A DNA stretch of 64,000 bases from Naegleria gruberi (Eukaryota): the NCBI GenBank assembly GCA_000004985.1, contig GG738897.1. One strand, written 5' to 3'. The notes under the pieces were generated by a model that saw nothing but the letters and a program-made list of their open reading frames with translations, did not search any database and was not told the DNA's origin. Positions 727 to 52,793 of the stretch are shown here, in pieces. Position 1 is the first letter of the stretch; each line of letters starts with the position of its first letter. A program made the translations under genes and the position numbers.

Positions 727-1766
727 TTTGATCAATTGGAGAAGTCTCTTTTCGGGGAGTGACTTTGATAATGCCACAACAAGTCCCAAAAAATCTTCTC
801 CCAACAACTTTAAGATGATAAAAAAGTTGTCATTAGCAAGTTTTTCGAGTCTTGATTTTTGGTTTCTGTTGTACATGGTGTATTATGTGGATCAGGGAAG
901 GAAGGTGTGTGATGTTATTGAGTTTTGGTGTTTTTTTTGGGTTAATTTTGGAACAAGTTGAGTTGTTTGCTGTAAACCTCACCACAAAATTCACGTTCAG
1001 CAAAACTTTTTGTTTTGAACCTTCCATTACAATTTTTCCATGTTTGGTCGTTATGATGGAACAATTTAGCAATTAATTGAGTGATGGCCCAATAGGTTCT
1101 GCATTATTTTCCTGATCGAATTCAATACACCACTTTCTATATGATGGAAAATCATATTGGATAAGCTAATAGAAATTGACATGAAAATCAGTGGATGGTG
1201 TGAACTCCTAGAGAGTTGATATGACTAGCAGAACCAACAACTCATCATGATTCATATGATGATGAATTATTAGTAGCACTCGATGTTCTAATCACAATAG
1301 GTTCCAAAATACTATGATCTGTTAATGATTGAACCTGTTCATGGAAGAGTGTAACACTGTCCTTTCTTTTCTGTTTGTTTCCGACAATCACTTGGTCAAT
1401 ATTACTCAATAATTCATGATGAATTGATCAAAATAATGGAACACAAGAAAATATACCCAAGTATTCAAAGGATTCATCACAATTAAACAAATTTCATAGA
1501 AAACAGGAGAAATGTAATTAGGAATCATTTAGTTATAGTACTTTTCAACTTCCTCACGTTCTGGAAGTTCTTCAACAATTCTAATAGGATGAAGAAAAGT
1601 ATCCAAAGATGATAAATTCCTGTCTTCATCAGCAGTACTAATAAAATAGTAATGCAGACAACATGCGGGATAAAATATTCGCAATTTTTTCTGTGTGGAA
1701 TCTTGTGGAATCTTTGCAGAGCTTGCAGTTTTGATAGAACTATATTGGTAGGCAATCTTTTCTTTG

Positions 1767-3203
1767 TTAAAGGAGTGGTTTTGAAGTGTTGATTCGTTGG
1801 TTTTGTAAAAAAGTTTCAACACTATTTGAAAGATAAGGAAATAAAGTTGAAAAAGACTGTTTTCCAATACAAATGATGTTTGAGTACTTATTTCTTGATA
1901 ATCTTTCCACCTCCTTATTTGGATGTAAGCGAATTATTACATTAAGGGAAACACCTTTTTTAATTGACTCCCATACTTGACATCTTGAGCTTTCCCACCA
2001 TTCATTAAGCTTGCTATTATTGGCTTCTTTAATATTTTTCACAAACAAGTCAAATTCACTGTCTGTATCAAGCTCTTTAATCGATTCCAATTCATTGAAA
2101 GTGGATTCTACACTATTATCATTTTCGTTGATATTAGACTCAATTTCATTCACAGTGGTTGATTGGTTTTCATCACTTGATCCATTGCCAATTTGTATTT
2201 TCAATTCTTGTTTAGCTTTTGTAACTTCAATACCTTTGCTAAAATTATTAATAAAATTATTAAGGACACTTGTAGGTGTGTCATTCTTTCTTAATAAAGT
2301 TATTGTTTCTAAATCTATAGTGTTATATTCGTTTAAATACATTAGTTCAGGAGCCAATGATTTATATCCAATATCTAAATCATTTCCAGTAAGTGCTTTT
2401 ATACTTATTCGAAAATGAACTGGAGTATAATTGGCTAAATAGAATAAATAAATATCTGTATGATTATGATCTGATGGAAACAATGCTATTTGATCTATCT
2501 TTTGATAATCTTCTTTTTTAATAAACCGAAAGAATAATTGTTCACCTGAATATTTATCTGATTCACTATCAATCCAATTATTATCTTTACAATAATCATA
2601 AAAACTTGATGAATTGAATAATCTTTTACATCTAACCTTGCAATCCAATATTGGTATGACATCAGGTTGCAATACGTATTTCGTAGAAACTATCATACTT
2701 TTTAAGGTAATATCAAGCGATGTCAAGGCAATACCAATTACTGGTTCCATAATTTCTTCTCTATCAGAAAGTGTTAATAATTGGGAACTAATGGTTTGAG
2801 GAGTATCTGAATATGGAAAGTTCATATTACTTAAATATTGAACACAAAAACCATATCCAAGTGCATCAACAGCATAGAATTGTAGCTCGTTATCACTGGA
2901 AGGACCGGTTATTCCTGACATTACTAAATTTTTAGCAACTTGTCCATCTTTTACAATAAATGTTGATCCCAATATTTCTGGAAACTTGTGGTGCATGATA
3001 TATTTCATTAATACTAATTTAAATGATTCCATGTAAATCTGTCTAGACTTTTCCATACGTTCTTCGAATGATTTACATTTGCTTTTAATGTATTCTTTCA
3101 TTTTTGTTTCTGAATTCATAAATGCTCCTGTTACATCCTTTTTTTGATCCATCATATCAGATGTAAAATATAAAGAGCCTGTCTTCTTCTCATTGGAAAC
3201 CAT
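1767..3203 (-). CDS. Hypothetical protein of 478 aa. It may be the C-terminal exon(s) of a larger P-loop NTPase gene spanning 1767..4819.
   Basis: A long ORF with an ATG at 3203. It overlaps the 3152..3448 ORF in another frame. A GTAAAG...AGACAG micro-intron of about 32 nt would join the two in phase (...FGIDELNE-C-SLYFTSDMMDQ...). No recognisable domain. Confidence 0.45.
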   Translation of the reverse strand: MVSNEKKTGSLYFTSDMMDQKKDVTGAFMNSETKMKEYIKSKCKSFEERMEKSRQIYMESFKLVLMKYIMHHKFPEILGSTFIVKDGQVAKNLVMSGITGPSSDNELQFYAVDALGYGFCVQYLSNMNFPYSDTPQTISSQLLTLSDREEIMEPVIGIALTSLDITLKSMIVSTKYVLQPDVIPILDCKVRCKRLFNSSSFYDYCKDNNWIDSESDKYSGEQLFFRFIKKEDYQKIDQIALFPSDHNHTDIYLFYLANYTPVHFRISIKALTGNDLDIGYKSLAPELMYLNEYNTIDLETITLLRKNDTPTSVLNNFINNFSKGIEVTKAKQELKIQIGNGSSDENQSTTVNEIESNINENDNSVESTFNELESIKELDTDSEFDLFVKNIKEANNSKLNEWWESSRCQVWESIKKGVSLNVIIRLHPNKEVERLSRNKYSNIICIGKQSFSTLFPYLSNSVETFLQNQRINTSKPLL

Positions 3204-3448
3204 GCTTTACACTCATTCAATTCATCGATACCAAATTTAACATTATGCACAAGCATGAAATGAATAAATTGTTCCATATTTAAATATTGAAAACTGTATA
3301 ATTTACAACATTCTTGAGATAATTCTGTTTTTGCCATACCTGAACGAATCATGGAAGTGATATCTATATCAAATGATGTACCTGCAAACAGGGAAGCTGA
3401 TGATGCAACAATATTAATTTCAGTTGCAAGACACTCAATATACCACAA
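3152..3448 (-). CDS. Possible internal exon linking the 3518..4819 and 1767..3203 ORFs.
   Basis: A 98-aa ORF with a TTG 'start' in the track. It lies between a GTAAGT donor at the 3' end of the upstream ORF and the overlapping downstream ORF. I could not close the splice phases unambiguously. Confidence 0.2.
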   Translation of the reverse strand: MWYIECLATEINIVASSASLFAGTSFDIDITSMIRSGMAKTELSQECCKLYSFQYLNMEQFIHFMLVHNVKFGIDELNECKAWFPMRRRQALYILHLI

Positions 3449-27829: not shown

Positions 27830-27951
27830 TTCTTCTCTTTCTACATTTTTTTAATTTTTGAATCTCGATAAATTTCTTTGGCCAACAAACAATGAAAGAA
27901 ATTATGTAATGTTTGTTCACGTTTCGCTTAACAAAATGATATGAACATGAA

Positions 27952-28022
27952 AGGGAGATAGTTCAGTGGTAGAACATGGGATTGTGGTTCCTAAGATCAG
28001 GGTTCGATTCCCTGTCTTCCTA
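27952..28022 (+). tRNA. tRNA-His (anticodon GUG), copy 1
   Basis: The sequence AGGGAGATAGTTCAGTGGTAGAACATGGGATTGTGGTTCCTAAGATCAGGGTTCGATTCCCTGTCTTCCTA folds as a cloverleaf. The acceptor stem is AGGGAGA/TCTTCCT with one G-U pair. The D-arm is GTTC-AGTGGTA-GAAC. The anticodon stem is TGGGA/TCCTA with loop TTGTGGT (anticodon GTG). The T-arm is CAGGG-TTCGATT-CCCTG and the discriminator is A. Confidence 0.8.
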
Positions 28023-28341
28023 CTTCTTTTTATAACTATTTGTACAAAGCTTGAATTTAATCTGCACTGTATAATGTTAATTTTGAATTTATATTAAGGT
28101 TCAACCAAATCTTGATACTTCCACACTCAACATTTCCAATATTACTTGGTGATTTTCAATTCTCTGTTTATGGTGCTCTGCATATTGGTTCATTTGTATG
28201 ATATTATTTGATTGATCACTTAAATATTACTTTATTAAGCTCATCAATCAAATCGAATATAGTATCAATTCTGTTTCATCATGATCGTGTTGTAATCATG
28301 CTAATTTTCAACAATTAATCAAACATGACAGCATTCTTCAA

Positions 28342-29972
28342 TTAAACCATGATATCTCCCTCCCTACGTTTCTTAACTTGTTCAATTGAATTTTCATTTG
28401 GGTCTTTTTTAATGAGTTCAGTAGTGTCCTCCATTTCAGTCTCGTCATCATCTTCATCTTCCTCCTGGATTGGGAAATGGGTAGAACTCACTTGTTGAAC
28501 TGTTACAGTCTTCATTTCTTGTTCAGATTCAGTGTACATGAAATAGGTCACACTCAACAAGACAATAATGCAACCCAATAATTGCCAAATTGACTTTAGC
28601 GATTCTTGCAAAATGAGACTACTGAAAACAATTGTTGAGATTAATCTCAAGGCAATTATAGAGCCAACTTTTGTAGATCCAAGCAAACCAATTGCAAGAA
28701 TATTTAAACCATTGGCCATCATGTATACTAAAATAGTAAATCCAAAGAACATGCCCCAATCCTTAGAATTCAATCGAGCCCACAAAGTCCAATCATCAAA
28801 TATTGCACTTGGCACAGCAAATATAAAGACAAGAATTAATAATTGATAAATGAATAGTTTCTCTCCAGTAACACTAATGGTATTTCCCTGAGATTCTTCC
28901 TGTTTCATATATCTCAAAGAGAGCATGTACCAAACAAGACAACAACTTGAAACTATACTTGATGAGATACCTAATACATCCCATGGTGTAATATTTTCAG
29001 AAATGGTATTAAAATCAATCTCAATTGTGATTTCAGTACATACACACCATCAGTTTTTGGAACAATACTTCCAATAATTATAATAGCCCCTCCTATAAAT
29101 GTAGCAATCATTGACAAGATTGCTTTCAATCCAAATGTTTCCTTAGTATGTGAATCTCTAATAAACCATCTGTTATAAACAAATACTGTTACAAAAGCCA
29201 GAGTAAATGGACTTGACAATGCAAACAATTGAACAAATAGTGGAATTGTAAATTTGGAGGCAACAACATTGGTAAATGATCTCCCCAACAATGCACAAAA
29301 GAAGCTAATGAGAGGTAATGAGAATTTAATCCACTTCTTAATCCTCTCGAATATAGACAATTTCATTACAACATGATGTTGAGTATTAACATTCATTCCT
29401 TCCTTGTTATTCTTCCTATTCTTCCACTTATTCCTCAAATAAACAATTAACAAGAAGAGAATTCTGGGAGAGTATAATAGAAGGGCAGCCATATGACAGC
29501 TAGTAACCAATAGCATGGGAGGAAACTTATTTGGAGATTGAGATTGCAGATACCTCGAAAAGATTGGATGTGTACCATAAAGTGTATGTACTGAAATACA
29601 TGCTAACCAACCCAACATTGATTTGAGTATGGGCATTGAATCTATTAGATTTGAAACTCTAGAAGTGAGAGATTGCTTCTCCCTCTCTTGATCTCCGTAA
29701 GAAGAAGAATTAGTGGATGTTATAATATTATCTTGTTCATCTTGCTTATGATGATAATGATGAACATAATCAATTGTATCATGATTCTCCTCCGATGATG
29801 AATTATTTAAAGCTTCATGTCCATTCTCCTTGCCTAATTCATACTGTTGTTGTGAAGGTGGTTTTCTTACTTGCAGCACCGACACTTCATCATTTTCAAC
29901 AACTGTTGTTGTGCTTATTAATAGTGATGATGATTCTTCGAGTGAATGTTCTAACAGTTGTTGCTTCGACAT
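28342..29972 (-). CDS. Multi-pass membrane protein, probable DMT-superfamily (EamA/SLC35-like) transporter. Two exons.
   Basis: Exons are 29972..29044 (ATG at 29972; ends at donor GTATGT) and 28957..28342 (acceptor CTCATCAAG). This gives an 86-nt intron with closing phase (...PKTDG-V-IVSSCCLVWYMLSLRYMKQ...). There are about 10 predicted TM helices in two halves, plus hydrophilic termini rich in acidic residues. The family assignment is tentative. Confidence 0.45.
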
Positions 29973-30133
29973 TTTCTTTGTAGATGATCGATACAGACCA
30001 CACTACAGATCTTTTACAGCTTTGTTAAATTATTGATGGTTCTTGAACTGTATAACCTGTAATTTTCTACTGCCTAATCGAGTCATTATGGGATATGAGG
30101 ATGTTGAAATTCTGTACAAGTTCTACTGATTGT

Positions 30134-31861
30134 TTATTTCTTTTGCATAAGCATGTTATTTGACTTGATAAAGAAATCACCCTTATCGAATAACTTTAAA
30201 AGAATGACCAGAGTTTCCTTATCAATTTCGAAATTTCTCTCTGCCTCATCATTCATCATATTGGCACCATGATAATTTTCAGTGGCAAAGATGGAATCAA
30301 TATTGACATTGAGCAATGTTGAAACTTGCTCAATAACTTGTTTTTTGGTTTCTTGTTCTCTCACTTCATCCATCTTGGTAACAATCACCAATGGTTGATA
30401 TCCATATCCAAGAGATTCTTGATACATCTTCTTGAGCTTTTCAATGAGCTCTTTATCACCACGATCACCCTGAGCAAGGAAAAACAAGATACAGTGTACT
30501 TGATTTTCATCACACTTTTCAATTTGCTTTGTCATGATGGATTCACTCATCTCAAATGATTCTCCGAGAAGTCCACGTAACCAACTTAGGAACAGGGTTG
30601 GCTCAGTGAAGGTCTTTTCTGAAATTCCAAAAGAATCACCCAATAGGAAAAACAAATTGCACAATGTTTCATCTTCAGGAAAGATCTTGGAGAAGCATAC
30701 CTTTTCAAGACGTTTGGTAACATGATCACCTCCAGGAGCTGTAATTGCGAATGATGTGTGCTTGTTTTGTATAAAGGTTAATCCATGTACTAATGTGACA
30801 ATACGGTTGAAAAAGGATGATTTTCCAGATCCAATAATACCAAATGAGAAGATGTACAATTTTGAAACCTTACTTGATTTAGGTGGTCTATATTCTAGCA
30901 CTTTATAGCCAAAATCACTTGCCCAAAACTCAACATGACCCTTTTCGATAATACTAGAAGAGGGAGTTGTGATGGAATATTCTAATTCCTTGCAAATATC
31001 CCTAACAGTTGCACCATCTTTTGGATATAGCTCAATTTCAAAAGTTGCACTCGATTCAGGGTCAACACCAGACTTGGTTTTGAAAGTCTTACTATCGAAA
31101 TACGAGTTTCTATTAAATTTGATTACGGTCCCTGCTGGGATTTCCTTATCTGAATCATTTATGATTGTAACCATGATTTTTACATTCTCACCAATATGAT
31201 AGGGTCTGTTTTTGAGTGTAAACTTGATTCTAACAAAATCCTCATACTCTTTAGAAACAATTTCAGCTAAAGTTTCATTCAATTTGGACCATTCTTGGAT
31301 GTGGTAACCCTTTTGTGGTGAGATGGTTTGGATAAATGATTTGTCTATACCAGAGCCAACACCGATACAGCAAATGTCAACGTTGGCCAGCTTTAAATCA
31401 TTGGCGCGATTAATAGCTTCAATCTTGTCATCTGGAAAACCGTCAGTAAAGACGAAGAGGAACTTTCTTCTCTTATCTGTCATTTCATTCTTGATAATGA
31501 TCAGAGCTTCATTGAAGGCACCACCTAAATTGGTTCCTCCTCCAAGATTAGCAGTTCTAACCTTTGGCACTTTCTCAAGGATTGTATCCAAGTCAGAACA
31601 AACTCTTGCATGAACTGCACACTTGGAACTGAATTCAATAATGGTGAATTGATTGTCTTTGTTTTGTTCATGTAATTGTTTTACAACACCTCTGGTAGTG
31701 GAAAACATTTGACAGCAACTATCATCCTTCATAGAAGGAGAAGTATCCCCTAATATACCAACATGAACTGCTTCATGAGTCTTATCTGTTTTCTTTTTCA
31801 TTGGTCTGTCCCTCTTGGTTGAATCATTTTCTGAATATTCCACACGGTCTTTAGTATACAT
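30134..31861 (-). CDS. Fusion protein: N-terminal vWA domain with a complete MIDAS plus a C-terminal IRG/dynamin-like P-loop GTPase. 575 aa.
   Basis: ATG at 31861. The vWA domain shows VHVGILGDTSPSMKDD (DxSxS), GGGTNLGGAF (MIDAS Thr) and FVFTDGFPDD (MIDAS Asp). The GTPase domain shows G1 FSFGIIGSGKSSFFNRIVTL (compare IRG GETGSGKSSFIN), G3 LLGDSFG (DxxG) and G4 VIVTKMDEV ([NT]KxD). It is a single exon. Confidence 0.7.
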   Translation of the reverse strand: MYTKDRVEYSENDSTKRDRPMKKKTDKTHEAVHVGILGDTSPSMKDDSCCQMFSTTRGVVKQLHEQNKDNQFTIIEFSSKCAVHARVCSDLDTILEKVPKVRTANLGGGTNLGGAFNEALIIIKNEMTDKRRKFLFVFTDGFPDDKIEAINRANDLKLANVDICCIGVGSGIDKSFIQTISPQKGYHIQEWSKLNETLAEIVSKEYEDFVRIKFTLKNRPYHIGENVKIMVTIINDSDKEIPAGTVIKFNRNSYFDSKTFKTKSGVDPESSATFEIELYPKDGATVRDICKELEYSITTPSSSIIEKGHVEFWASDFGYKVLEYRPPKSSKVSKLYIFSFGIIGSGKSSFFNRIVTLVHGLTFIQNKHTSFAITAPGGDHVTKRLEKVCFSKIFPEDETLCNLFFLLGDSFGISEKTFTEPTLFLSWLRGLLGESFEMSESIMTKQIEKCDENQVHCILFFLAQGDRGDKELIEKLKKMYQESLGYGYQPLVIVTKMDEVREQETKKQVIEQVSTLLNVNIDSIFATENYHGANMMNDEAERNFEIDKETLVILLKLFDKGDFFIKSNNMLMQKK

Positions 31862-31916
31862 TTTTTTGCTTTGAATCAGTTTCTGAAAGGATCTTGTGGA
31901 GCTAATAATTATTTTC

Positions 31917-32046
31917 GAAACGTGCTAAAGCAACTTGATTGGTTACCCTTAAACGTGATTTTGTAATCAGATAATTTCAAATTGAAACGTGCCAATCTTA
32001 ATAACGTGATTGAATTATTCAGATTAAAATTATATTTCGAAACGTG
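31917..32046. promoter_or_regulatory. Cluster of five (A)AACGTG motifs in the divergent promoter between the vWA-GTPase gene (-) and the coiled-coil gene (+).
   Basis: The motifs are GAAACGTGCT at 31917, AAACGTGATT at 31951, GAAACGTGCC at 31984, TAACGTGATT at 32001 and GAAACGTGATT at 32037. All fall inside the 213-bp intergenic space 31862..32074. Three sit in the longer TTCGAAACGTG context. Confidence 0.3.
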
Positions 32047-32074
32047 ATTAAAATTTTCAATTATAAAAAATTGT

Positions 32075-33304
32075 ATGGAAAGTGTTTCTTCAATAATTTC
32101 ACATATATTTTGCTGTTCAAGAATGAAAAACAGATTCAAATCCTTTGAAGTGACAACAAACAACAATGGTACCCTTCCAAAGAACAAGACAAAACCTGTT
32201 AGGAACAATGCATATGAATCACCACACTACACAACAGTGCAATCAAAGCCAGTACCAATTATTTCAACATCTAACTATGGGGATAATAACATAGATCATG
32301 ATTACTATCCTTATAATCAATACAAAGAGAATAGAGATCAATCCATCGTAACGCCTAATCTGGTGGAAGAAATGGTTGAGAAAACAGTCAAATCACTCAT
32401 GAGAGAGATGATGTTAATTTTAAGTGATCAATCAGATAATATCAAGATAATGAATCAACATGCAGAGCACCATAAGCAGAGAATTGAAAAATTGGAGGAT
32501 CAACAAGTAATATTGGAAATGTTGAGTCAAGATAAGCTTCACTTGTCTAATCTTATTGCTGGTACATCAAAGGACATATTAGAAAAAATAATTGAAATTA
32601 AAAAAGATCAATCTGAGGAAGTAAGAAAGTTGCAACACTCAAATGAAACTGAAACAAAAGCGTTAGATACCAAACTTGACAAGATGCAAAAGTCATTGGA
32701 TGATGTTGTTGATGAAGTTAGGAAATTGGATGAAAAGATGAATAATCTCCACGTGCTTTACAGTGAATTGAAATTCAAAGGAAATCCATCCAAACCCTCA
32801 ATGCTTTCTACTTTTTTAGGGAGGGGAAAAGAGCCAGTTCAAAAAGAAACCAAGTTGGTAGCTTCTCAACCTTTCTACTCTACTGTTTCATTCTCTGTAT
32901 TCCCAAATTCTGGTTATGAAAAAGCAACTGATCAATTAATCAATTTGATAGGTGAACAATGTAATTCTAACCAGACCTATATCAATTTTAAAACCAAGAC
33001 CAAAATTGAAGAGTATGAGAATGGTGAAAAGGTTCTCTTCATTAGATATTGTGGAAGTACCAGATTTGAAAGTCCAGACGCAAGTGCCCTCTTGGAAAAG
33101 GGATGTAAAATTGTTTTCATCTTGTTGACTTATGGAGATAAGACCATTGATATCAAATTACCATCACAATTCCAAAGTTGTGCATTTATGCAAATTCAAA
33201 TCAATGGAATGTATTATCACAACACTCAAGATTTGGTTGGAATGCATGATCAAAAGCAATGCAAATTATTCCAATTAATTACTAGCCAATTTACAGAGCA
33301 ATAA
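32075..33304 (+). CDS. Hypothetical protein of 409 aa with a central coiled-coil and a C-terminal globular domain of about 150 aa.
   Basis: ATG at 32075. The heptad-rich segment runs roughly IEKLEDQQVILEMLSQ...VRKLDEKMNNLHVLYSELK. The C-terminal region (FYSTVSFSVFPNSGYEKATDQLINLIGEQ...KIVFILLTYGDKTIDIKL) is unassigned. Confidence 0.5.
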   Translation: MESVSSIISHIFCCSRMKNRFKSFEVTTNNNGTLPKNKTKPVRNNAYESPHYTTVQSKPVPIISTSNYGDNNIDHDYYPYNQYKENRDQSIVTPNLVEEMVEKTVKSLMREMMLILSDQSDNIKIMNQHAEHHKQRIEKLEDQQVILEMLSQDKLHLSNLIAGTSKDILEKIIEIKKDQSEEVRKLQHSNETETKALDTKLDKMQKSLDDVVDEVRKLDEKMNNLHVLYSELKFKGNPSKPSMLSTFLGRGKEPVQKETKLVASQPFYSTVSFSVFPNSGYEKATDQLINLIGEQCNSNQTYINFKTKTKIEEYENGEKVLFIRYCGSTRFESPDASALLEKGCKIVFILLTYGDKTIDIKLPSQFQSCAFMQIQINGMYYHNTQDLVGMHDQKQCKLFQLITSQFTEQ

Positions 33305-33375
33305 CCCTAATAAAATGTGATCTTAAATTCAAACTATATAGTGTAGATTAAACTTTTGCTTAATACATATAGTTA

Positions 33376-33446
33376 TAAAAAGAAGTAGGAAGACAGGGAA
33401 TCGAACCCTGATCTTAGGAACCACAATCCCATGTTCTACCACTGAA
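33376..33446 (-). tRNA. tRNA-His (anticodon GUG), copy 2. Identical to copy 1 but in inverted orientation.
   Basis: The reverse complement of 33376..33446 is identical over all 71 nt to 27952..28022. About 12 nt of 5' flank (AACATGAA) and about 85 nt of 3' flank (CTTCTTTTTATAACTAT..TTTAATCT.CACT.TATA) are also recognisably conserved but diverged. Confidence 0.8.
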
Positions 33447-33540
33447 CTATCTCCCTTTCATGTTATCTGAATCATTAAGGGATTATCTGTGAAAACAACG
33501 AATTTGTAATAGTGTTAAGGGCACATATATTACAGTCCGT

Positions 33541-34852
33541 TCATTTCACGAATTCGTGTCGAATATTGTAACCAGAAACCTCTTTCATAAATTCATCCAA
33601 AGAGAATAATCCTGCGCAAGGAATGGCTCCTTTTTGTTCAACATATCCCCTTGCAAGTTTTTTAGCAATGCATATGGACGGAATGGCTGGTATCATTGGC
33701 CCATCTCCTCCTTTTGCAATTAAATTCCAAGTAATAGTCTTTTCTTTACCATTCTTGTCCAATCCATTGATTATCATTTGCATACCACCTCTATCAGATC
33801 CAAAATTATAGAACCACCCACTCATGGTCTTGAATAATGGAGAGTAAACGGACCAATCTTTTACAATCCCAGCTTGTGCAAGATATGACATTCCCACAAC
33901 AGAAAATTGGAACATGTTCAACTCTACACCAGCTCTAAACTCCAAGTTTTTGAGAGTAGGATAAATCTTTGGAAAAATCTCAACCTCAGGAGTTTCACAA
34001 AAAGCAACATATCTAGTTCCTATTCCATCTGGAAATTGTGCCCTTTTCACTCCTTGCCATCCAATGACATTTTCCAATTTACCATTCAAGAACATTGGTA
34101 TTGGCTTTCCACAATAACTCAATATGGATCTCATTGTTGATTCTCCAATATGAGCTCTATTACCAGGAGAAAGACAACTATCAATGCTTGTAATTTCTGA
34201 AAGATCATGTTTTAACACCTCGTTTAAAACAGCAGAGGACAATCCAGGAACAGTACTGGCTATTTAATGATAAGAGAAGACAAATTATCAATAACACAAA
34301 CTTACCTCCACAAACAGCAAGCACATCATTCTTCACTGCCTTGTCGTGTAACTTGTCAGAAAAGTTTGCAACAAACTCTCTAGAATCCGATAAATCTATA
34401 TAATTAATTCCTCTATCAATACATTGCTCTGCCACATGAAAATTCTGTCCTTGAAATGGTCCACAAGTATGAATGACCAGGTTAGGCTTTGTTTGTTGTA
34501 GACAATCCTTCAAACTTCTCTCATCATTCACATCAACCAGAGAGGTTTGTACTCTAAAAGATGACGATGATGAAGTATTCTGTATTAATTCATCTCGAAA
34601 TTGATTGGCACTTGCTAAATTCCTTCCAGCAATAACAATTTCCTGTGGAGTATTAACATCATTGTCTTTGAATAATTGGGAGGTAATTCTCTTGCCGAAT
34701 GAGCCATAGCCTCCGAGCACAAGCACTCTGAAGGAGGCTTTTTGATGATGGAGAGAAAAGGATTTTGATAAAGTACTCTTTCTAATTAATAATGTACGGG
34801 TGGTGGCTTTGAACATTTTTTTGATTATGAAGATAGATGGAAAGGAGGACAT
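33541..34852 (-). CDS. Saccharopine-dehydrogenase-like NAD(P)-binding oxidoreductase. Two exons.
   Basis: Exons are 34852..34306 (ATG at 34852; ends GGAG|GTAAGT) and 34259..33541 (acceptor CATTAAATAG; phase closes: ...VCGG-A-STVPGLSSAVLNEVLKHD...). There is a Rossmann GxGxxG motif at VLVLGGYGSFGKRITSQL. Overall length and layout match the Sccpdh family. The N-terminus MSSFPSIFIIKKMFKATTRTLLIRKST is presequence-like. Confidence 0.65.
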
Positions 34853-40705: not shown

Positions 40706-41911
40706 TTACAAAGAATCATCAATTAGATTAGGTAATTGTTTCAAAATATTTCTGGCACCATTGTCTCCAATATTGAAACGAATTTTGAGGTAAGTCAATT
40801 GGTTCATTTCAGCAATATAATTGGCTCCTTTCTTATTAATATTATTAGAATTAATATTAAGACTAGTCAACTGCTTCATTTCGCTAATGCATTTAGCTCC
40901 TTCGTCTTGAATACTGTTACAACTAATATCCAGACAAGTTAATTTTTTCATTTGACTGATAAATTTAGCTCCTTCTTTACCAATATTATTGTGTCCAATA
41001 TTAAGATTGACCAATCGATTCATTTCACTGATAAATTTTGCGCCTTTTGCACTAATACCATTATTAGCAACATTCAGATCAGTTAACAATTCAAGTCTAC
41101 TTAAATATCTTACGTCATCTCCTAATATATTATACTTGGCATTAAGATAGGTCAATTCTTTCAATTCACCCAAATATTTAGCTCCTCCATTAATATTATT
41201 GCATTCAACATCGAGGTGAGTTAATTGCTTCATTTCACTCAAATATTTCGCCCCCACTTCACCAATATAACAGTAAACCATGTCGAGAGTACGTAATTCT
41301 TTCAATTCCTTTAAAAATTTGACTCCTTCACTTCCAATATGATTACTATTAATATTAAGACAAGTCAACTGTTTCATTTTTCCAATATACTGAGCTCCTT
41401 TCTCCCCAATCATGTTGTTACTTATATTTAAATTAGTCAATTGCTTCAATTTCCTCAAATATCCAACACCTTCATCTCCAATCAAATTAATACTAATATC
41501 CAAATTAGTTAAATGTTTCAGTTGACCAATATATTTGCAATGACCATTTTCAAAAGTGTTTTCACTGACATTCAGTGTACTTATATCTTTCATTAAATTA
41601 AATAACTGGCAATCGAATGCAATTATCCTATTCCTTCTATTCACTGTCAAACTTTGAATATTTTGTAAAAATTGACCTTTTAATTTCATGTCATTTTCAC
41701 AATACAAGGAAAGTTTTAATTTTTTCGAAATGTTTGCAAATTGTGAAGAAACTAAAGTGCAAGTCGTGACAATAAATTTAAAATCATCGAGGAAGGAAAG
41801 AATTTCATAGAGCACATCATTAGAAAAGACGGAATTGGAAAGTTTCTTCCTTCTTGTATCCGAAAGTTGGACGAATCCTTCGGTTATTGCATCTAATTTT
41901 CGTTTACTCAT
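40706..41911 (-). CDS. Ribonuclease-inhibitor-like LRR protein with an N-terminal F-box-like region, 401 aa.
   Basis: ATG at 41911. About 11 tandem 24-aa units of the form LT.L.I..N.IG.EGAKYL (for example LTNLNISNNMIGEKGAQYIGKMKQLTCLNINSNHIGSEGVKFLKELKELRTLDM) are characteristic of the RNI/LRR_RI class. Confidence 0.7.
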   Translation of the reverse strand: MSKRKLDAITEGFVQLSDTRRKKLSNSVFSNDVLYEILSFLDDFKFIVTTCTLVSSQFANISKKLKLSLYCENDMKLKGQFLQNIQSLTVNRRNRIIAFDCQLFNLMKDISTLNVSENTFENGHCKYIGQLKHLTNLDISINLIGDEGVGYLRKLKQLTNLNISNNMIGEKGAQYIGKMKQLTCLNINSNHIGSEGVKFLKELKELRTLDMVYCYIGEVGAKYLSEMKQLTHLDVECNNINGGAKYLGELKELTYLNAKYNILGDDVRYLSRLELLTDLNVANNGISAKGAKFISEMNRLVNLNIGHNNIGKEGAKFISQMKKLTCLDISCNSIQDEGAKCISEMKQLTSLNINSNNINKKGANYIAEMNQLTYLKIRFNIGDNGARNILKQLPNLIDDSL

Positions 41912-51700: not shown

Positions 51701-52573
51701 ATGCAGCACTTGAAAAACAGCCATAAATTCATCACGATCAGAATTGATCAACACATTAATCCAATGATGAAGAGAATGATGAAGAATTTGGATCATCATC
51801 ACCATAATAACAATCAATTATTATTACTCTCGGAGAAGGCTTCAAATTATCTTCGAAATTTCTCATCATCAAGAATTAAATTATCATCTTCGGAAGAAAA
51901 GAAAATTGAAGATTTGATTAATATTTCCCAAATTAATATTGATGATGAACCAATTACTAGTAAATGGATTAAATTGAGGAGAATGAAGTATATTCAGAAT
52001 GGTGTTTCTAAAACATGGGATATTGCCATGGTCAATGATTCAGTTTCTTGCTTGATTTATCAAAAGACAAGACAGGAATTTATCATTATTAGACAATTTA
52101 GACCATCAATACTTGCTAGACAATTATTTAAGGAAAATCCAATTGTACAAAATGTGAATATTTCATCAGATAAAATTGAATATACTTTCGAGTTGTGTGC
52201 TGGATTGAAGGATAAGAATCTTCCACCCAATGAAACAATTCAGGCAGAAGTGGAGGAAGAATGTGGATATAGAGTACCAATTTCGAATATTCAACATGTG
52301 AATACCTATTATACATCTACTGCTTCAAGTGCTTCAATGCAACATTTGTATTATATTGAAATGGATGATGAGAGTGAATTGAAATGGAAAGTGAGTGAGG
52401 GCGGAGGTTTAGAGAGTGAGGGTGAAATTCTTTTACCTTTCAGATTACCACTCAGTAAGGTTTCCAGTTTCCTTAAGGATGGCCCAAAACCTTCAACACT
52501 GATTTATGCAATAACTTGGTGGTTTTTGGAGAAGGCCACTAAAGAACAACGAGATTTATTCTATTTCAAGTGA
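51701..52573 (+). CDS. Nudix hydrolase (NUDT14-like nucleotide-sugar/ADP-ribose pyrophosphatase), 290 aa.
   Basis: ATG at 51701. The Nudix box is CAGLKDKNLPPNETIQAEVEEECGYRV (Gx5Ex7REUxEExGU). There is an N-terminal extension with a His/Asn run. Confidence 0.65.
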   Translation: MQHLKNSHKFITIRIDQHINPMMKRMMKNLDHHHHNNNQLLLLSEKASNYLRNFSSSRIKLSSSEEKKIEDLINISQINIDDEPITSKWIKLRRMKYIQNGVSKTWDIAMVNDSVSCLIYQKTRQEFIIIRQFRPSILARQLFKENPIVQNVNISSDKIEYTFELCAGLKDKNLPPNETIQAEVEEECGYRVPISNIQHVNTYYTSTASSASMQHLYYIEMDDESELKWKVSEGGGLESEGEILLPFRLPLSKVSSFLKDGPKPSTLIYAITWWFLEKATKEQRDLFYFK

Positions 52574-52793
52574 TAATTTTGTTCACACATCTGGACTTTC
52601 AAAACTAGCACTTCCACAATATTTAATGAAGAGAACCTTTTTACCATTCTCATACTCTTCGATTTTACTCTTGGTTTCATTCGAATTATTGACCTTAGTA
52701 GAAAAACTCTTTTTATGTTAAGCCAGAAGACTCTTAATAACACTAGTAGTATGGAAAGCTTTTTCTTGCCTGTGGCTTTCAACGCCTAAAAAA

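Follow-up and report, generated by a model that had tools for sequence, protein, structure and literature searches.

Why do two copies of the same transfer RNA (tRNA) gene face each other across a few kilobases of Naegleria gruberi DNA? The question arises in a 64,000-nt stretch of contig GG738897.1 (hereafter the window), in which two tRNA-His(GUG) genes, 5.4 kb apart and with their 3′ ends pointing inward, form a convergent pair around a transporter gene, a gene for a vWA-domain protein and a gene for a coiled-coil (cc) protein (Table 1). An earlier note, made from the letters alone, had suggested that this bracket could be the footprint either of a segmental duplication or of an insertion targeted at a tRNA gene. 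In our view a multi-copy tRNA gene has here undergone an ordinary local inverted duplication or ectopic repair. We consider it reasonably likely that a tRNA-His pair framing the vWA and cc genes is ancestral, and that DNA from the copy-2 side was later copied, inverted, onto the copy-1 side in the N. gruberi lineage, where it decayed to a relic.

Table 1. Coordinates of the tRNA-His pair, its flanks, the enclosed genes and the relics of the cc gene (positions of the window)
Feature	Position	Strand	Basis and remarks
tRNA-His(GUG) copy 1	27952..28022	+	ARAGORN, Rfam, sequence read; 71 nt
tRNA-His(GUG) copy 2	33386..33456	-	ARAGORN, Rfam; 71/71 identical to copy 1
Left arm of 96-nt perfect inverted repeat	27944..28039	+	8-nt leader, tRNA and 17-nt trailer; holds T5 terminator 28027-28031
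Right arm of 96-nt perfect inverted repeat	33369..33464	-	T5 run 33377-33381
Diverged 3′ flank of copy 1	28040..28101	+	Homologous to 33303-33368; ~74% over ungapped 43 nt; ends at position matching cc stop
cc relic beside copy 1	28125..28244	-	~35 codons, LSDQSNNIIQMNQYAEHHKQRIENHQVILEMLS; homologous to cc 32399-32527
EamA/DMT transporter paralogue	28342..29972	-	Pfam EamA; frame broken near 29029-29042
vWA-domain protein with C-terminal P-loop region	30134..31861	-	Pfam VWA; GTPase-like G1/G3/G4 motifs
cc gene	32075..33304	+	Divergent from vWA gene; donor of both relics; stop 81 nt from 3′ end of copy-2 tRNA
Second cc relic	52589..52687	-	Intergenic; reads …KIEEYENGKKVLFIKYCGSASFESPDV and a stop; 91% nucleotide identity to cc 32991-33078

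Two ordinary tRNA-His genes

Judged by their sequence, both copies are ordinary nuclear tRNA-His(GUG) genes of N. gruberi, of the type transcribed by RNA polymerase III (Pol III). Of the three tRNA genes that ARAGORN finds in the window, two are tRNA-His(GTG), at 27952–28023 (+) and 33385–33456 (−). The Rfam family RF00005 gives 69.2 bits to each of them, at 27952–28022 and 33386–33456, against a gathering score of 29. Both programs thus call the two copies tRNA-His with a GTG anticodon. The claim that these are identical 71-nt genes in opposite orientation stands on re-reading, base for base. The earlier coordinates were right for copy 1, whereas those of copy 2 (33376..33446) were 10 nt too low.

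The internal promoter and the terminator are those of a Pol III gene. Scored against consensus sequences taken from general knowledge, the A box of both genes (TAGTTCAGTGG) agrees with TRGCNNAGTGG at 10 of 11 positions and the B box (GGTTCGATTCC) at all 11. A run of five T residues begins 5 nt past each gene (28027–28031 and 33377–33381). The gene ends are of eukaryotic type, with neither CCA nor G-1 encoded; the first pair is A1-U72, the discriminator is A73, the base at −1 is A, and CTTC follows directly on the 3′ side. With an A at −1 (27951–28023 and 33385–33457 of the window, counting one base beyond each end), G-1 of this tRNA-His is either added after transcription or absent.

The surrounding DNA is of the same origin. 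The vWA open reading frame (ORF) is a 100% match to an NCBI ‘predicted protein [Naegleria gruberi]’ on a 326,913-bp scaffold, and the G+C content (GC) is ~33% throughout the window and flat across the region (0.32–0.36); the window is therefore eukaryotic nuclear DNA.

For N. gruberi, 924 tRNA genes and pseudogenes have been reported (PMC2888827), so that identical dispersed copies are to be expected. If 10–30 of these are copies of tRNA-His in a genome of ~41 Mb, chance would place only 0.01–0.12 pairs within 5.5 kb of each other genome-wide. That two tRNA-His genes lie 5.4 kb apart by chance is excluded.

The shared DNA runs into the coiled-coil gene

The identical tract is longer than the tRNA. 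It comprises 96 nt, beginning with an 8-nt leader (AACATGAA), and it lies within a longer region of gapped homology (27944–28101 against 33464–33303; 87% over 162 columns, E ~1e-44). The two ends of this region behave differently. On the 5′ side the homology covers at most ~20 nt, and that only when a 3-nt indel is allowed. On the 3′ side the common flank covers ~79 nt, close to the ~85 nt first estimated, and extends as far as the stop codon of the cc gene at 33302–33304.

All 25 flanking bases of the perfect repeat (leader and trailer) are identical, which has a chance of ~6e-4 given the 74% identity of the adjacent flank. Purifying selection on a component of translation presumably keeps the tRNA body identical. 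As for the 25 extra bases, the leader and terminator may themselves be under selection, the copies may occasionally undergo gene conversion, or both may apply. We also compared sequences upstream of tRNA genes for a common motif that would explain the identical leader. In this comparison of few genes the match was weak: an N. gruberi tRNA-Glu gene bears a slight likeness to the sequence upstream of copy 2 (AGATAAC…GAAA), and two N. lovaniensis tRNA genes bear none.

Beside copy 1 the homology does not end with the trailer. Only 23 nt past it begins a relic of the cc gene, which aligns with the reverse complement of cc (32527–32399) at 79% over 129 columns (E ~1e-25), or at 85% of aligned sites with a 9-nt in-frame gap. 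Its minus strand reads LSDQSNNIIQMNQYAEHHKQRIENHQVILEMLS where the cc protein has LSDQSDNIKIMNQHAEHHKQRIEKLEDQQVILEMLS. The relic is in frame with cc residues ~116–151 and has stop codons at its bounds.

Beside either tRNA copy the order is tRNA, trailer, stop region of cc and interior of cc, and the blocks are collinear with matching relative orientation. What was copied was therefore the tRNA with its trailer and at least 1.07 kb of the cc gene, of which ~0.78 kb is now absent between the relic and the copy-1 trailer. Homology that passes beyond a functional gene into its non-coding flank and on into a neighbouring gene is a DNA-level inverted duplication. That it passes the T5 terminator and enters cc also speaks against retroposition of a normal Pol III transcript. 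The case for a segmental duplication is thus stronger than the earlier note had made it, as the shared DNA continues into a collinear cc relic of the same orientation.

The copying was not recent. The relic differs from its source at 15% of sites and the ungapped trailer at 26%, or 0.17 and 0.31 substitutions per site after Jukes–Cantor correction; the window and a second strain, by comparison, are only ~1% apart.

A second cc relic lies far from the bracket, 16 nt past the stop codon of an ORF at 51701–52573. It derives from a part of cc that is absent beside copy 1. When the 64-kb window is compared with itself by BLAST, the tRNA block and these two cc-derived fragments are the only dispersed repeats.

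The bracket in a related species

Two contigs from other sources bear on the age of this arrangement. The first is the second strain, a 5705-nt ENA metagenome contig (L002, ERZ929261) that is 99.05% identical to positions 29132–34826 of the window. Its order and orientation are those of the window: transporter, vWA gene, cc gene, tRNA copy 2 and a saccharopine-dehydrogenase-like gene. At the copy-2 junction, in this one strain contig, there is no inversion.

The second contig is from a more distant, Naegleria-like species. It is a Logan contig of 3444 nt (L001, run SRR25266757) and encodes orthologues of the vWA protein (63% identity) and of the cc protein (54%), divergent as in the window; the two genes of the pair occupy 88–1362 and 1650–3368. 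The gene pair has thus been kept in a second species. Moreover, the contig starts and finishes with one and the same 30-nt sequence (AGATCAGGGTTCGATTCCCTGTCTTCCTAC), inverted and with 3′ ends inward, made up of the final 29 nt of the N. gruberi tRNA-His and one further base. The tRNA ends lie 57 nt past the cc stop codon and 47 nt past the vWA stop codon, with neither transporter nor relic between. Where a tRNA gene is repeated, short-read graph assembly would be expected to end a contig just within it.

In this species, then, an inverted tRNA-His pair frames the vWA and cc genes alone. Because the bracket surrounds the same two genes in both species, the tRNA pair is probably old rather than a recent insertion, and the comparison of the two loci suggests that the bracket was probably already present in their common ancestor. 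The earlier note had counted an ancestral, syntenic arrangement against its own reading. In part, this is what is found, as a second species at 54–63% protein identity has its vWA and cc genes framed by inverted tRNA-His 3′ ends. We also considered the similar trailers of the two tRNA ends in the relative (16 of 21 positions) as evidence of gene conversion. We rejected them: they are T-rich, of low complexity and not significantly alike.

The cc relic, by contrast with the bracket, is younger than the species split. Aligned with the cc genes of the window, the second strain and the relative, it groups with the two N. gruberi sequences, and it lacks both a 12-nt insertion and many substitutions of the relative's cc gene. 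The copying of trailer and cc therefore postdates the separation of the two species and belongs to the N. gruberi lineage. The second relic, at 52.6 kb, is likewise closer to the cc gene of N. gruberi than to that of the relative.

Further searches did not extend this comparison. The transporter locus of N. lovaniensis (L003) is not syntenic with the window. Exact scans of JGI metagenome contigs gave 0 matches to the whole tRNA and 0 to its 3′ 28 nt. Exact-protein look-ups of the vWA protein, of an N. gruberi transporter paralogue (P0006), of the C-terminal transporter ORF and of the DUF4116 ORF returned no record, so that the copy-1 junction is not visible in another strain. A homologue search with the transporter and the saccharopine dehydrogenase concatenated returned transporter paralogues only, and nothing for the dehydrogenase half.

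A proposed history and its rivals

We propose the following sequence of events. In the ancestor of N. gruberi and its relative, a convergent tRNA-His pair would probably have framed the divergent vWA and cc genes. At a later stage, within the lineage of N. gruberi, a tract of tRNA, trailer and at least 1.07 kb into cc would have been copied from the copy-2 to the copy-1 side in inverted orientation. This may have been a plain inverted segmental duplication, or repair synthesis that started from the shared tRNA and ran on into the neighbouring DNA. The copied cc sequence would have been without function in its new place; it would have decayed, losing ~0.78 kb, while the remainder diverged and left the relic of 35 codons.

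Several observations weigh against this history. The contig of the relative shows just 29–30 nt of each tRNA, and its assignment to tRNA-His is a match of 29 out of 29 bases. Copy 1 and the vWA-side tRNA of the relative are not necessarily orthologous. In N. gruberi, copy 1 is separated from the vWA gene by the transporter and the relic, and no remnant of a tRNA is found from the start of the transporter to the stop codon of the vWA gene (the alignment score is at the mean of shuffled sequences); the ancestral gene could thus have been lost and copy 1 have taken its place as a new duplicate. The second fragment, at 52.6 kb, means that pieces of cc were copied more than once, which a simple two-step history does not predict. 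Finally, selection alone could account for the identity of the 96 nt. Conversion between the copies is not demonstrated, since the second strain carries two single-nucleotide polymorphisms in the copy-2 trailer, at +13 and +20.

On the view that copy 1 arose anew, one inverted duplication of copy 2 and cc would have landed upstream of the transporter in the N. gruberi lineage, and either the ancestral vWA-side tRNA was lost or the pair in the relative arose independently. This would fit the relic and trailer beside copy 1, which are specific to the N. gruberi lineage, the bare vWA stop codon, the transporter that parts copy 1 from the vWA gene but is absent from the bracket of the relative, and the end of homology 8–20 nt upstream of the tRNA, as for a duplication breakpoint. 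It requires, however, that an inverted tRNA-His was both gained and lost, or that two lineages independently gained one next to the same two genes, and a retained pair with one repair or duplication event is the more economical account. We hold a new copy 1 to be rather unlikely, although the data do not separate a retained ancestral gene from a replacement. Likewise, either an insertion in N. gruberi or a loss in the relative could account for the transporter.

The retained pair might instead owe its persistence to a function. Two inverted tRNA genes could serve as the substrate of an invertible 5.3-kb segment, or as chromatin boundaries that insulate the vWA and cc genes. tRNA genes are known as insulators in yeast and mammals. 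A perfect 96-nt inverted repeat flanks the segment and, on the face of its sequence, could in principle mediate inversion. The bracket around vWA and cc is kept in two species, and the synteny of tRNA genes is reported to be poor in general (PMC2888827). On the other hand, no orientation variant is seen, the one strain contig matching the window across the copy-2 junction; a Pfam search of the ORFs finds no recombinase family; and 96 nt is short for homologous recombination. In a gene-dense genome where tRNA genes occur about once every 44 kb, keeping two needs no function, and a transporter and a relic have been tolerated inside the N. gruberi bracket. Nothing points to a function of the bracket itself, and we think either role very improbable. 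A broader form of the idea, still improbable but slightly less so, would make the convergent pair a conserved architecture of the vWA–cc module in the N. gruberi clade, acting as insulators or as an occasional inversion substrate, with the tRNA genes perhaps serving also as homology anchors for break-repair copying to ectopic sites. Such anchoring, if true, would explain why fragments of cc are the only dispersed repeats in 64 kb.

Insertion of a mobile or foreign element, the other origin that the earlier note had entertained, is not supported. A retroelement, a genomic island or an integrated fragment of a giant virus would have targeted the tRNA, and the second tRNA would have come from the integration. 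tRNA genes are known targets of integration, and the enclosed vWA and cc genes are lineage-restricted. But the three ORFs hold no reverse transcriptase, integrase or transposase family (Pfam finds EamA and VWA only), GC is uniform at ~33%, and the vWA gene is single-copy in N. gruberi. The repeats are inverted and span the tRNA gene in full rather than being direct copies of part of a tRNA 3′ end, and the self-comparison of the window shows no terminal repeats besides the tRNA block. Searches of viral contigs gave no match to the 3′ half of the tRNA or to the vWA protein. Of all the explanations weighed here, we regard insertion as the most remote.

Comparison with known systems

Eukaryotic tRNA genes are described as multi-copy families that turn over rapidly (PMC2888827), give rise to local and non-local copies and undergo concerted evolution (PMC4981973, PMC5745555). 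The N. gruberi locus has the marks of such a family: identical bodies, diverged flanks, a local duplicate a few kilobases away and a tRNA-rich genome. It differs in two respects. One can follow the duplication into an adjacent coding gene, and it has left a datable relic; the pair, moreover, has apparently been kept across two species even though the synteny of tRNA genes is usually poor.

Other systems resemble parts of the locus. Dispersed serine tRNA genes of Schizosaccharomyces pombe reportedly undergo intergenic conversion. As there, the tract of identity here consists of the tRNA and a few flanking bases, beside flanks of 74–85% identity; here, however, conversion is only a possibility, and purifying selection on tRNA, leader and terminator could give the same pattern. 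The cc relics are like pseudogene fragments or the templated insertions of double-strand-break repair, being in-frame gene pieces of ~90–130 nt at two intergenic sites. Unlike those, one of the fragments is linked to a co-duplicated tRNA and trailer, and a repair mechanism is only a suggestion for it. With the tRNA-targeted TRE and DGLT-A elements of Dictyostelium, Ty3 of yeast and tRNA-linked islands, the locus shares lineage-restricted genes that adjoin a tRNA. By contrast, genes of an element, target-site repeats and direct repeats are all absent from it, its composition is native and the block is single-copy.

We therefore see the locus as another instance of the known turnover of tRNA genes, mildly unusual in that the pair is apparently present in two species and in its second cc relic. 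It is a small, datable case of tRNA-linked duplication in Naegleria, with a tRNA pair that has probably been kept in two species. In a tRNA-rich eukaryotic genome, identical tRNA genes with partly shared flanks should be read as a local duplication and not as the footprint of a mobile element. Beyond this, its importance is small and lies mainly in annotation.

Genes in and around the bracket

The bracket was said to enclose exactly three genes. The transporter, vWA and cc ORFs are all there, but the cc relic at 28125–28244 is a fourth element, and the frame of the transporter is broken.

The transporter is a diverged paralogue. It shares 64% identity with P0006, which lies on another N. gruberi scaffold, and 48% with a protein of N. 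lovaniensis (P0007); P0006 and P0007 share 56%. At 29029–29042, 14 nt replace nine codons (SLPWYSFIF) that are conserved in both. The frame break could mark a recent pseudogene, an error of assembly or a very small intron. A 26-nt intron that would restore the frame is unlikely, as it would delete the conserved segment PWY.F..TY and the N. lovaniensis gene has no intron.

The vWA protein owes its GTPase label to G1/G3/G4-like motifs recognized by eye; Pfam matches the vWA domain only. A structural search with the GTPase half gave no significant match, the best being a septin at E ~0.3. The gene has one orthologue in the relative. Both it and the cc gene are lineage-restricted, with only 2–3 relatives among 5.8 billion proteins, and the protein search found no homologues of the pair in N. 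lovaniensis or N. fowleri.

The cc ORF has no credible Pfam family. In the same set of 5.8 billion proteins it matches only a metagenome ORF and the orthologue from Logan. Neither the cc gene nor this copy of the transporter, which appears frameshifted, has a matching N. gruberi protein from NCBI in that set, and both seem to be absent from the reference annotation.

The ORFs that flank the bracket match the Pfam families DUF4116, Sacchrp_dh and RCC1. The saccharopine-dehydrogenase-like gene (33541–34852, −) consists of two ORFs with a 38-nt overlap and in different frames. The split probably reflects an intron and is the same in the contig of the second strain. Self-BLAST also gave one internal tandem repeat at 40.7–41.6 kb. 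Its units (40706–41604) are ~60–66% identical at offsets of ~140–560 nt, and it is probably a repeat-containing coding region.

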